A stretch of DNA of 19,987 bases from a virus (IMGVR_UViG_2541047875_000009:1-19987); one strand, 5' to 3'; counted from the stretch's first letter, positions 9,632 to 17,629 are shown. Notes: generated by a model not told the origin, from the letters alone. A program made the numbers and translations.

Positions 9632-9838
9632 GTGAATTGTATTAACGACCTGAACACAGGCGATGTCAGAGGTGGTTCCGTTCATCTGGATGCACAGACC
9701 GTGATGCGCCTTAAGCAGTACAGAATCGACCATGTGAACAATCACCCTGATCAGCCATTACCAGGCGTGGCGCAGATTGTCAGACATGCCGTAAACGCCT
9801 GGCTTAATCAGAATGGTTTTGCATCGGGGGGTGAGTAA
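9632..9838 (+). CDS. small protein at the head of the cargo operon, possibly a ribbon-helix-helix-like DNA-binding protein
   Basis: 68-aa ORF with GTG start and AAGAGGA RBS (9619-9625). Pattern of a short strand (VHLDAQT) plus two helices (VMRLKQYRIDH, VAQIVRHAVNAWL) suggests RHH; speculative. Confidence 0.4.
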   Translation: MNCINDLNTGDVRGGSVHLDAQTVMRLKQYRIDHVNNHPDQPLPGVAQIVRHAVNAWLNQNGFASGGE

Positions 9839-9934
9839 TGAATCGCTGGTACAGCATCAAAGCGGAGGGACGCCAATGTTATTTAAATCAGGTTTTATGA
9901 ATTCTGGTACACGATTCAAAACAGGGGGTTACTG

Positions 9935-12466
9935 ATGCCAGTCGTACCAACAGTATCCGGACGCCAGGTTGAGAGCCGTGGAGTTCAGTCAGCAGGCTTG
10001 CAGACGTTTTCTCAGCCAGATATTGGTGATGCTTTTGTTCGGGCAGGGACAGAGGCAATTGATGTTCTTGGTCAGGCAAAACAGCGCGCCAATATTGCCT
10101 TGGTTCAGGAGGCATCCCTTAAACTCAGTCAGACAGGCAGTGATCTGCTGAATAATCCTGAAACAGGATTGCTTAACTTGAAAGGGAAAAATGCTATTGG
10201 AAAAGGCCATGAGTATACACAGCAGTTTGATGCTCAGATCGAACAACTGGCTATGTCGCTGCCGGATGAACAGGCTCGTAATGCTTTCATGCAGCAGGCG
10301 CAGCAGCAGCGTATTCAGTTCGCTACGCAGGCCGGGAGGTACGAGATAGGGCAAATAAATGCCTACGAAGAAGGCCAGTTTCAGGCGACACTGCTGAATA
10401 ATGGTAAAAATGCCTCAGCATTATATGGCGACAACGCAGCATACATATTGGCTAATACGCAAACTTTCCAGCAAATTGAGGATTACGGTATTGCGCATGG
10501 CTGGAGCGACGAGCAAATCCAGGCCAAGAAAATCGAGTTTAAAGAAGCAACAGCAAAAGCAACTGCTCAAAATGCTATTGGAGCAAACTATCTTCAGGTA
10601 AGACAGCAAAATGGCGAGTTAAGCGATACTGCTGCTGGATCTCGCCGTGCTGTAGCAGATAGTGGCTCTTCCGATCGTACCCGCGGTATACGCAACAATA
10701 ACCCCGGCAATCTTGAATACAGCAAAACTAATCCGTGGGTTGGGCAGACTGGTGATGATGGTCGCTTTGCCAAATTCGAAACCCCTGAACACGGTATTCG
10801 CGCGCTTGGTCGCAATTTGCTGTCGTATCAGCGTCAGGGTTATGACACCATCAGCGAAATAATTAATCGCTGGGCACCGGCCAGTGATGATAATAAAACT
10901 GATGCTTATATACGGGCAGTATGTGCTCAGCTCGGTGTAACTCCTGACCAGCCGCTTGACGCATCAAATCCTGACACACTGAAATCTCTGTGCAAAGCAA
11001 TTATTCATCATGAGCAAGGCAGTCAGCCGTACAGTGATCAGCAATTGGCCGCTGGCGTTAGTGCCGCACTGGGGCTTTCTCAGCTACCGACAAAAAATAA
11101 ACGTTATACCGGTGTAGCCTGGTTCGATGCTTTAAGTGAATCAGATCAGGCCAGCGTGTTGCGACAGACGGATGCATTAGCCAGACAGCAGCAGGCTGAA
11201 TATAGAACGATGCTCGAAAGCCGGGTTCGCGATGCAACGGCTGCGTATATGCGTGGCGTTGAATTTCCTAACCCGCCTGGTGAGGGTGAGTTCATTGCTG
11301 CTTATGGTGTCAGAGAAGGAAACCTGCGATATACCGAGTTCAGAAATTTGCAGATCGCCGGACAGTATATAGGCTCTTTCCGCAACATGCCGACAAGCAG
11401 CATTACCGCATATGTTGAGCAATTACGCCCGGATACTGGTGAGACAGGGGAGGGGTATGCGTCTCGTGCGGAGTTATTCGACCGGGTATCGGCGGCAGCC
11501 ACGAAGGTAATAACCCAGAGGCAGAATAATCCGTTTAGTGCAGCGGTGGAAATCGGAGCCTATAAGCCGATCACCAGCAACAACCCTGACGACATCACTG
11601 CCGAGGTGGCTAACCGTTTCTCGTCGCAGGAAAGCTTACGCGCGTTGGGAATTAATGCCCCACTCCTCAACAGTGAAGAGGCGGCTGCGCTGGCACAGCA
11701 GGTGCGCGGCACTCAGAACGTTGACCAGACAATTAAACTGTTGCAGAGCATGGGGGAGAAGCTGCCTGCGCCAGCAATACGGCAGGTGGCATCTGTAATT
11801 GCTCCGAACAGTGCGGCAACAGCCTATTCTGCGCTGCTGCTGGGCACGCCGGATAACCAGTACGACAACACCAGGCCGACGATCCCATATAGTCAGTTCA
11901 TCGGGTATAAGCCGACGATGAACAAGTACGACGTTGCAAAGGTTATTCTTTCCGGCGACCAACTACTGAATCCGACGAAGGCCATGAAGAATGCGGGCAT
12001 AACTCCGGTACAGTTGCCGAGCGAAGATAAGATGAAAGACGCTTTCGACGAACAGGTAGGTAATGCATTTGCCCGTAACCCGCAGTTACGCCAGATCAGT
12101 TATAGCCTTTTCAAAGCCGCTTACGCAGGAATAGCTTATCAATCTGGTGATGCCTCTACGGTAAGAACCAGTATGCCTGATACAGACATTGTAGCTGATG
12201 CCGTGAAGTATGCTACTGGCGGTATATACAATGGTTTTAATGGCGGCGACGTTGTAATGCCTTTTGGCATGGATAAATCTACTTTCAAAGATCGCTATAC
12301 CACATCTGCGAAACAAGCACTGAAAGATGCCGGACTTAACGTAAATGCAGTGTCAAATTTCACGCCAGTTAATATCGGCAATAACCGGTATCGGCTTGTA
12401 AATGGTAGCGGACGCTGGGCAACAGATCCCAGAACCAATAAAGCTATTGTCGTGAGGGTTGAATAA
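9935..12466 (+). CDS. large uncharacterised protein A (843 aa): Q/A-rich helical N-terminus and a central domain with an RGIRNNNPGNLEY motif
   Basis: Long ORF with AGGGGG RBS (9921-9926). No Walker or nuclease motifs seen. Composition rich in A/Q/G/S/T/N, reminiscent of phage internal virion, ejection or tape-measure proteins. Its stop overlaps the next start (TAATG). Confidence 0.8.
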   Translation: MPVVPTVSGRQVESRGVQSAGLQTFSQPDIGDAFVRAGTEAIDVLGQAKQRANIALVQEASLKLSQTGSDLLNNPETGLLNLKGKNAIGKGHEYTQQFDAQIEQLAMSLPDEQARNAFMQQAQQQRIQFATQAGRYEIGQINAYEEGQFQATLLNNGKNASALYGDNAAYILANTQTFQQIEDYGIAHGWSDEQIQAKKIEFKEATAKATAQNAIGANYLQVRQQNGELSDTAAGSRRAVADSGSSDRTRGIRNNNPGNLEYSKTNPWVGQTGDDGRFAKFETPEHGIRALGRNLLSYQRQGYDTISEIINRWAPASDDNKTDAYIRAVCAQLGVTPDQPLDASNPDTLKSLCKAIIHHEQGSQPYSDQQLAAGVSAALGLSQLPTKNKRYTGVAWFDALSESDQASVLRQTDALARQQQAEYRTMLESRVRDATAAYMRGVEFPNPPGEGEFIAAYGVREGNLRYTEFRNLQIAGQYIGSFRNMPTSSITAYVEQLRPDTGETGEGYASRAELFDRVSAAATKVITQRQNNPFSAAVEIGAYKPITSNNPDDITAEVANRFSSQESLRALGINAPLLNSEEAAALAQQVRGTQNVDQTIKLLQSMGEKLPAPAIRQVASVIAPNSAATAYSALLLGTPDNQYDNTRPTIPYSQFIGYKPTMNKYDVAKVILSGDQLLNPTKAMKNAGITPVQLPSEDKMKDAFDEQVGNAFARNPQLRQISYSLFKAAYAGIAYQSGDASTVRTSMPDTDIVADAVKYATGGIYNGFNGGDVVMPFGMDKSTFKDRYTTSAKQALKDAGLNVNAVSNFTPVNIGNNRYRLVNGSGRWATDPRTNKAIVVRVE

Positions 12467-17282: not shown

Positions 17283-17596
17283 TGACGAGAGATAAAATTG
17301 AATATATTGCTTCTCTTAAATATGAAGCTGAGAAATGGAGAAGGATTGGCGGGTGGGGAACATTAATATCACTCTCTGCTTTACTTATAGACTCCTGGTT
17401 CAGACATATTGATGCAGCATCATTACTTTTTGAATCAGCAGTACTTGGTGGATTCATTTGCTGTTGGGGTGGTAATTATGATCGGGCGTCCAAACATAAG
17501 AGAGAACTTGACGCGATATGTTTTGCTTTATTCGGTAAGGATTACGAAAGTTCTGACCTTGATATAATTGAATTCAACAAAACGGAACTATCGTGA
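17282..17596 (+). CDS. small membrane protein (104 aa), AT-rich, last gene of the cargo operon
   Basis: ATG overlaps the upstream stop (TGATG). Two hydrophobic segments (IGGWGTLISLSALLIDSWF and LLFESAVLGGFICCWGG) suggest two transmembrane helices. Much lower GC than upstream genes. Followed by a strong terminator. Confidence 0.6.
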   Translation: MTRDKIEYIASLKYEAEKWRRIGGWGTLISLSALLIDSWFRHIDAASLLFESAVLGGFICCWGGNYDRASKHKRELDAICFALFGKDYESSDLDIIEFNKTELS

Positions 17597-17604
17597 CATG
17601 TCAC

Positions 17605-17629
17605 AGGCCGCTTTCGCGGCCTTGTTTTT
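17605..17629 (+). terminator. rho-independent terminator closing the cargo operon
   Basis: AGGCCGC-tttc-GCGGCCT hairpin (17605-17622) followed by TGTTTTT. A 12-bp palindrome GTGACATGTCAC lies just upstream (17593-17604). Confidence 0.65.

Follow-up and report, generated by a model that had tools for sequence, protein, structure and literature searches.

Introduction

The satellites known so far act on capsid size, terminase specificity or tails; to our knowledge, none has been demonstrated to supply DNA-ejection proteins of its own. Here we analyse a stretch of 19,987 nucleotides catalogued as viral (IMGVR_UViG_2541047875_000009:1-19987; hereafter the window, positions being counted from its first nucleotide), which carries an Escherichia coli satellite island of the phage-inducible chromosomal island (PICI) type and, within it, an operon at 9632-17629 whose predicted products are homologues of the internal-core and DNA-ejection proteins of Uetakevirus phages.

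A studied element of comparable build is EcCIMP1, a 19,963-bp PICI of E. coli, which excises only with the podophage vB_EcoP_Kapi1 and is transduced by Kapi1 at low frequency (PMC11773190). EcCIMP1 adds superinfection immunity in lysogens, and neither PADLOC nor DefenseFinder finds a known defence system in it (PMC11773190). Its authors (Pick, Stadel and Raivio, 2025) saw "no phage-like structural genes" in it and suggested that EcCIMP1_017-019 serve in packaging; for these ORFs they noted a likeness to "DNA transfer proteins" and to Kapi1 proteins (PMC11773190). Besides EcCIMP1, we found in the literature no description of satellites or PICIs with ejection or internal virion proteins.

On the side of the phages, two reports that cite work on the Uetakevirus epsilon15 assign its genes 15, 16 and 17 to the core or injection apparatus, report the presence of these proteins in virions and their ejection, and describe how the core exits the capsid and spans the periplasm as a tube (PMC12391199, PMC8954989). 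The ejectosomes of T7 (gp14/gp15/gp16) and P22 (gp7/gp20/gp16) are alike in being stored in the head, ejected first and able to form a trans-envelope channel, with one domain that cuts peptidoglycan (PMC8954989).

Results

The operon encodes predicted Uetakevirus core and ejection proteins

Three large open reading frames (ORFs) follow one another on the plus strand at 9935-12466 (843 amino acids, aa), 12466-14526 (686 aa) and 14526-17282 (918 aa from its ATG, the longest ORF starting from a GTG at 14505). A preliminary description of this DNA had taken them for unknown proteins of a candidate undescribed system, with a composition recalling, among other things, phage ejection proteins. Each of them matched a PHROG family end to end, namely phrog_992 ("head protein", 5e-290) for the 843-aa protein, phrog_1145 (2e-136) for the 686-aa protein and phrog_684 ("virion structural protein", 2.5e-295) for the 918-aa protein. 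Only Uetakeviruses were matched when phage genomes were searched by megablast (Enterobacter phage BUCT554, Salmonella phages E15 and epsilon15, E. coli phage phiV10), and global aa identity to gp15, gp16 and gp17 of epsilon15 was 79, 67 and 89%, respectively. The proteins are thus not unknown, and it is the likeness to an injected-protein set that proved right; we refer to them as gp15-, gp16- and gp17-like.

The arrangement of the genes agrees with this assignment. In epsilon15, gp15, gp16 and gp17 follow one another as they do here, with stops that overlap in the same way; gp13 and gp14, both internal virion proteins, lie upstream of them, and a small membrane gene and then a terminator lie downstream. 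Sizes, overlapping stop/start codons and the terminator after a small fourth gene are likewise shared with phiV10. The gp15-like protein contains a lytic-transglycosylase domain at residues ~248-403 (nt ~10676-11143; PDB 9vvp_L at 4e-39 and 7q47 at 2e-16). Beyond this domain the PDB sequence search returned nothing for gp15, left gp17 unmatched and gave for gp16 a chance-level match alone, so that the solved T7 and P22 ejection proteins show no detectable match outside the transglycosylase domain, and their equivalence rests on the epsilon15 literature and on synteny. No model of Pfam, NCBIfam or PADLOC matches any of the five proteins of the cassette, which explains why RefSeq names all cassette genes "hypothetical protein". 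Taken together, these comparisons identify the block, at the level of its sequence, as a Uetakevirus internal-core/DNA-ejection module, comprising gp15 with its lytic transglycosylase, gp16, gp17 and a small membrane protein.

The operon is bounded, as first described, by two intrinsic terminators, each a hairpin with a U-tract. The one at 9507-9529 (plus strand, -15.5 kcal/mol) closes the upstream replication and regulatory genes, and the one at 17605-17629 (plus strand, -14.3 kcal/mol) ends the cassette; the folds of both have a z score of about -2.5. Stop and start codons do overlap in TAATG at 12464 and at 14524 and in TGATG at 17280. A further TGATG exists at 9933, which had been read as linking a fifth gene to the chain, but the 68-aa ORF in question (9632-9838, plus strand; ribbon-helix-helix-like by eye; PHROG 4934) already stops at 9838, so that four genes and not five are chained. 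The stop at 9933-9935 closes instead a 19-aa ORF (9876-9935, plus strand), whose TGA overlaps the ATG of gp15. We considered whether the 68-aa ORF might be a mimic of gp3, which is likewise of 68 aa and the first gene of the phage late operon, and rejected the idea, as the two have no similarity. A motif check of the proteins found no Walker A motif, in line with the preliminary description. Searches of the whole window detected neither an Rfam family nor a tRNA.

The fourth gene of the cassette (17282-17596, plus strand) occupies the slot of gp18 and encodes a small membrane protein of 104 aa, which had no family match in the PHROG, Pfam, NCBIfam or PADLOC searches. Unrelated small membrane proteins fill this position in Uetakeviruses and in other copies of the island. 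It is a swap point too (window 17278-17592 vs 18648-19362 of the island copy L009). In islands of the type found in the extraintestinal pathogenic E. coli (ExPEC) strain XM, membrane ORFs of 113 aa and 95 aa stand in place of the 104-aa ORF; the 113-aa protein shares 51% identity with the ORF downstream of gp17 on a phage contig (L013), and the 95-aa protein shares 64% with the 98-aa protein of the type 2 cassettes described below.

The cassette bears the scar of a capture inside gene 14 and differs between islands

Upstream of gp15, homology to E. coli prophages begins at 9861, 74 nt before the gp15 ATG and within the gp14 gene ("virion core protein, T7 gp14 family"). The segment 9861-9935 (plus strand) thus corresponds to the 3' end of this phage gene, and the 19-aa ORF is what is left of its reading frame, ending in ...GTRFKTGGY* where phiV10 gp14 ends in ...GTRLPGGL*. 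The TGATG at 9933 is explained by this scar, which left the 3' end of gp14 abutting gp15. Judging from the junction, the cassette was captured by recombination inside phage gene 14. In place of a complete gp14, as in epsilon15 and phiV10, gp15 is preceded in the window by a 352-bp leader of the PICI backbone (9517-9868, plus strand) with a promoter region and the 68-aa ORF; the module has also been separated from gp11-gp14, from the capsid genes and from the tailspike, which accompany it in these phages.

The left junction is common to about 45 of 5426 complete E. coli genomes, and behind an identical junction and backbone we distinguished at least three types of cassette. Type 1, that of the window (843/686/918 + 104 aa), was present in 37 genomes. 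Type 2 (837/600/824 + 98 aa), found in F11 and ETEC1749, has 91-99% aa identity to p18-p20 of phiV10. Type 3 (873/565/849 + 186 aa), found in F719, is 99.1-99.5% identical to a K1-type Uetakevirus prophage of strain AF10, and its fourth protein is also the one present in that prophage. Between types, the identity of gp16 and gp17 is ~20-30% only. Comparison by blastn with the islands of F11 and ETEC1749 placed the exchanged segment, in which island copies of one backbone differ, at 11469-17592 (plus strand); the backbone resumes at 17592, after the cassette. The gp15-like protein is itself chimeric: residues 1-~500 are of the phiV10 type, with 90-100% identity to the gp15 of phiV10-type prophages in most windows (75% in one window of 60 columns), and residues ~520-843 are of the epsilon15 type.

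All three large ORFs keep their exact length in island copies that are up to 8% apart in DNA, and the ratio of nonsynonymous to synonymous substitution rates (dN/dS) is 0.02-0.27. As far as such comparisons can tell, the cassette is kept under purifying selection and is repeatedly exchanged with circulating prophages of the helper type.

The middle of gp16 is a feature of a phage lineage

An HExxH motif had been pointed out in one of the large proteins, and we found it as HEALH at residues 355-359 of the 686-aa protein (nt 13528-13542). The gp16-like protein consists of a Gly/Ala-rich N-terminal part and a C-terminal part, both conserved with epsilon15 gp16, and, between them, of a middle (~275-480) that bears HEALH and is a lineage-specific replacement relative to epsilon15, phiV10 and BUCT554, none of which has it. 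This insert had no Pfam match, and AlphaFold2, given an alignment of three sequences, modelled it with low confidence, at a predicted local distance difference test score (pLDDT) of 52. It recurs at 70% identity, with HEALH kept, on one metagenomic contig, downstream of gp13 and a gene of the T7_gp14 family; no further homologue was found among 1.84 billion representative sequences. Its occurrence in a normal phage context, with gp13 and gp14 ahead of it, indicates a phage feature and not an invention of the island. The HEALH insert can thus be regarded as belonging to a phage lineage, and a metalloprotease role for it is putative and unproven.

The genetic context is that of a satellite

Homology to virion proteins, which the preliminary description had associated with a prophage remnant, is clearly present; the accompanying prophage context is not, as the cassette sits in a satellite with its own integrase, AlpA, primase and presumed origin. 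In E. coli MS 196-1, whose sequence is 99.8% identical to the window, the island is inserted into the chromosome between yicC and dinD. An imperfect direct repeat, CGTGTACATA(G/A)(A/G)GGTGTACATAAT, flanks it with one copy on each side. The island comprises ~19.0 kb (1-18863 of the window, plus strand), attL lying ~60-80 nt upstream of window position 1, outside the window, and the core repeat of attR, CGTGTACATAAGGGTGTACATAAT, at 18840-18863 (plus strand). A sister copy of 19.1 kb shows a second integration site at tRNA-Gly, where a 19-bp repeat of the 3' end of the tRNA forms the boundary.

The tyrosine integrase lies at one end of the island, between the flanking direct repeats of the attachment sites. 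Downstream of it and in the same orientation is a regulator of the AlpA family with a helix-turn-helix (2388-2606), named so by the Prokaryotic Genome Annotation Pipeline (PGAP) in an identical copy; its match to the NCBIfam excisionase domain is weak (E 6e-4, below the cut-off). The other genes encode AntA and Bro-N antirepressor-like proteins, an Icd-like protein, a DUF4222 protein, a DUF927 primase (match at 1e-46), SSB and a ProQ/FinO protein, and there is a PerC pseudogene. The cargo block does lie between two clusters of iterons, as had been noticed. The first, just downstream of the primase gene at 7720-7849, contains two GTTGCGGGTTAT-type repeats and two inverted GTAACCCGCAAAA and is the presumed replication origin; the second, at 18301-18460, contains three TTTGCGGGTTAT repeats with 21-nt spacing and inverted copies, TTTGCGGGTTAT being the iteron unit of both clusters.

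Capsid, portal and terminase genes were not found within the island, which agrees with the preliminary description, nor were tail and lysis genes. Among the PHROG and Pfam matches there was neither Psu, Sid or Delta, as in P4-like satellites, nor an own capsid, portal or connector gene, as in capsid-forming PICIs (cf-PICIs). Genuine Uetakevirus prophages of E. coli have the order terS-terL-portal-protease-major capsid protein, further genes, then gp12-gp13-gp14, the triplet gp15-gp17, tailspike and lysis. No neighbouring phage gene for morphogenesis, lysis or immunity, nor the decay of one, was found in the island, the sole remnant being the 74 nt of gp14. By its gene content and by its size, which falls within the ~10-20 kb of Gram-negative PICIs, the context is that of a PICI-type satellite and neither of an intact nor of a decayed prophage.

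Such islands are catalogued as viruses because of their three virion genes, which is a problem of annotation, as they are scored as "incomplete prophages" or viral contigs. A contig of 13.9 kb (L016, IMGVR_UViG_3300028951_000012), 99.1% identical over window 4775-17666, is listed by IMG/VR as an uncultivated viral genome; we rejected it as evidence of packaging, IMG/VR including predicted proviruses.

Related islands carry other cargo in the same slot

EcCIMP1 and the window share the plan of a ~19-20-kb island with integrase, AlpA, AntA, DUF4222, Icd and DUF927 primase, and with ejection genes downstream of the primase; AntA is 74.5% identical (aa) and the primase 61.6% identical over 560 aa. 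The window has the antirepressor and DNA primase by which EcCIMP1-like elements were recognised (PMC11773190, Fig. 5A); their Ash protein was not found in it. EcCIMP1 differs in sitting at tRNA-Thr, in an integrase that is 28% identical, in a second AlpA and in an intact PerC. Downstream of its primase, we found matches to PHROG 651, 598, 917/2534 and 770, which make up the gp14/gp7/gp20/gp16 ejection set of P22, with a transglycosylase domain on the last protein. On the strength of these matches, the EcCIMP1 ORFs form a P22-type ejection cassette, not recognised as such by the authors. The families of the two cassettes differ, and tblastn of the gp15-, gp16- and gp17-like proteins of the window against EcCIMP1 gave no match. 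A P22-type set in EcCIMP1 and a Uetakevirus-type set here mean that related satellite backbones carry the ejection modules of two unrelated groups of podoviruses.

The same backbone is recognisable in a classical PICI of the EcCICFT073 type (strain Rb-3, at cspD/clpS, L003), which has integrase, AlpA, Icd, DUF4222, primase and SSB in the same order. It shares with the window SSB, the 352-bp leader with the 68-aa ORF (88%; L003 13887-14237), which there stands ahead of the capsid/TerS-like operon, and the terminal iteron region (81%). Its slot is filled by a fusion of ClpP protease and major capsid protein together with a TerS-like gene (DUF1441, phrog_141), where the window has ejection proteins. 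Capsid and TerS-like content of this kind fits lambdoid cos helpers and packaging redirection of the Rpp type (PMC6739421).

Islands co-occur with Uetakevirus prophages

To look for helpers in the genomes with the window's cassette, we used as query a chimera of the island gp17 and the terL of phiV10. A second match, taken as Uetakevirus terL, was present in 26 of the 37 island genomes compared with about 499 of 5389 others (~9%), which gives an odds ratio of 23 and a p value of 7e-19, not corrected for the relatedness of the strains; the second match was inspected directly in two genomes, those of MS 196-1 and ExPEC XM. With a chimera of the island and phiV10 gp17 as query, a second match, taken as phiV10-type gp17, was present in 13 of the 37.

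The Uetakevirus prophage of ExPEC XM is apparently intact and has a type 2 cassette, and the island of this strain has type 1. Between the two, gp16 and gp17 are ~30% identical, and the N-terminal half of gp15, of the phiV10 type in both, is 93-100% identical; for the C-terminal half of gp15 together with gp16 and gp17, identity is ~13-30%. In MS 196-1, the best match to the window, the Uetakevirus prophage lies at guaA (L015, NZ_CP146681.1 1378600-1421000), and at locus positions 20003-23537 an IS3 replaces gp11-gp16 and the start of gp17; a second IS3 splits a holin gene. With the ejection genes of the prophage lost, the intact set of the island coexists with a helper-type prophage that lacks its own. 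We considered that the island complements this defective prophage and rejected it, the tail genes gp11 and gp12 being absent from the prophage as well.

Other features of the island

Several observations concern the remainder of the island. The PerC-family gene (9274-9499), just upstream of the terminator that precedes the cassette, is annotated by PGAP as "frameshifted" in all island copies examined (L002, L005, L006, L008, L009, L010 and L018) and is intact in Uetakevirus prophages; a frameshift common to all copies may mean that the gene is real but shorter, that the shift is programmed, or that the gene was inactivated long ago. The ProQ/FinO gene overlaps at its end with a 138-aa ORF (8849-9265). 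The match of this ORF to a "terminase" PHROG is weak (4e-10) and covers the N-terminal 64 residues, and its C-terminal portion aligns with the beginning of Ant antirepressors (3e-26), which makes it the only candidate in the island for a packaging-related DNA-binding protein.

The most variable region of the backbone between island copies is 3023-4775. A 300-aa ORF at 3895-4797 (plus strand) has no PHROG, Pfam or PADLOC match and is absent from the RefSeq annotation, which has instead, on the other strand, a YlcI/YnfO gene (4437-4616); the ORF may be spurious. An intergenic stretch of low GC (~38%) at 1916-2388, between a 216-aa ORF and alpA, contains a 15-nt direct repeat, TTTTTTCAATAGATT, at 2272-2286 and 2293-2307, and is likely the control region of the AlpA switch.

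At the right end, a strong hairpin with a U-tract at 18730-18775 (-20.7 kcal/mol, z -5.2), ~70 nt before attR and inside the island, is probably a terminator that shields dinD from island transcription. The chromosomal SOS gene dinD (window 19151-19987), which adjoins attR, encodes a Bro-N domain and matches phrog_8036 at 6e-110, so that this "core" gene flanking the integration site looks phage-derived.

Discussion

The explanation that we favour, with some reserve, is that a Uetakevirus ejection module occupies the late-operon slot of a PICI-type satellite, and that this island-encoded set serves the delivery of the island's own DNA in helper particles. The sequence of events would begin with the entry of a Uetakevirus helper into lytic growth. 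If matters stand as in EcCIMP1 and in the Gram-negative PICIs that have been characterised, AlpA would then switch the island on and the integrase would excise it. Replication would proceed from the iterons by the DUF927 primase-helicase. The cassette would be transcribed from the backbone promoter at ~9530-9631, and procapsids made by the helper would take the gp15, gp16 and gp17 of the island as their internal core. The island is about half the length of the ~39-40-kb phages, which would suit headful packaging of a dimer; two copies of ~19 kb would approximately fill one headful of ~39-40 kb. In the next cell, to go by the homology of the ejection proteins, these would be ejected, cut peptidoglycan and form a trans-envelope channel for the island DNA. 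As candidate reasons for a private set, often of another type than that of the resident prophage, we see independence from helper expression, the bypass of entry exclusion in helper lysogens, and interference.

Several points weigh against this explanation. Induction, packaging and incorporation into virions are predictions from the gene content. Neither TerS, nor Rpp, nor a pac-like element was found in the island, and the longest words that it shares with three helper terS regions are of 14 nt, which is the level of chance. The island has no gp13 and gp14, so that without a helper the core set is incomplete. Uetakevirus terL was not seen in 11 of the 37 island genomes, and the co-occurrence statistic ignores strain kinship and relies on second matches inspected in two genomes only. 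In MS 196-1 itself, the helper-type prophage is defective, the IS3-associated deletion having taken its tail and ejection genes. Finally, part of the low dN/dS may stem from recent import from phages, in which the genes are under selection as well.

Alternatively, the cassette may act in the resident cell, as interference or superinfection immunity, its core proteins co-assembling into progeny or disturbing DNA entry and thereby poisoning or excluding Uetakeviruses. Satellites often interfere with their helpers, and EcCIMP1, with an analogous cassette, adds immunity against its helper where no known defence system is found (PMC11773190); the cassette of the XM island, moreover, is unlike that of the resident prophage in gp16 and gp17. 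Yet helper titres are not lowered by EcCIMP1 (PMC11773190), and two of the cassette types have 91-99.5% identity to proteins that work in phages or prophages, which leaves no sign of neofunctionalisation. The cassette also stands behind a terminator in the slot that holds late or packaging genes in related PICIs, where expression in resting cells is not obvious, and the PADLOC check for known defence systems gave 0 matches for 9 island proteins. We consider this alternative unlikely.

A further possibility is that the cassette is neutral, a piece of a Uetakevirus prophage that the island acquired through illegitimate or homologous recombination and merely carries along. The recombination scar within gp14 would be expected from such an event, as would a chimeric gp15 with its crossover where the types can still be aligned, and contact with resident prophages is frequent. 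A passenger of this kind is difficult to reconcile with three ORFs of 2.1-2.8 kb that stay intact and of equal length in diverged copies at the dN/dS values given above, with a slot refilled by at least three complete and internally coherent cassettes, and with an unrelated podovirus cassette in the corresponding position of EcCIMP1; we judge it improbable.

Last, an undescribed anti-phage, anti-defence or toxin-immunity system of novel proteins, as the preliminary description had envisaged, with an HExxH metalloprotease as effector, could appeal to five proteins without a Pfam, NCBIfam or PADLOC family and to an insert that is an orphan among the 1.84 billion representatives, its motif kept in the single distant relative found, but it is already largely refuted, and in our estimation very improbable, given that all three large proteins are full-length homologues of the virion proteins of characterised phages and that the HEALH insert occurs also in a normal phage context after gp13 and gp14.

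The ejection cassettes of this island family offer a candidate function for EcCIMP1_017-019 and a candidate basis for the helper-specific superinfection immunity that EcCIMP1 confers where there is no known defence system. As a broader and tentative idea, which we hold possible without counting on it, satellites of podoviruses may form a class with interchangeable "ejectosome" cassettes, in which satellite proteins replace or mix with those of the helper and so decide which cells the DNA enters, for instance helper lysogens that exclude the helper's own set; if this were true, satellite ejection proteins might underlie the unexplained superinfection immunity of EcCIMP1, and the strategy would be a form of piracy directed at DNA delivery, distinct from the known ones that target capsid size, packaging specificity or the theft of tails.

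In conclusion, the interest of this locus lies in a combination, that of a family of podovirus satellites with swappable ejection cassettes and one precedent that has been studied but not recognised. These results suggest that the satellites of short-tailed phages come equipped with a DNA-injection kit of their own, as a recurring solution across this island family and EcCIMP1, and that the swapping of cassettes tracks the helper lineages in circulation.

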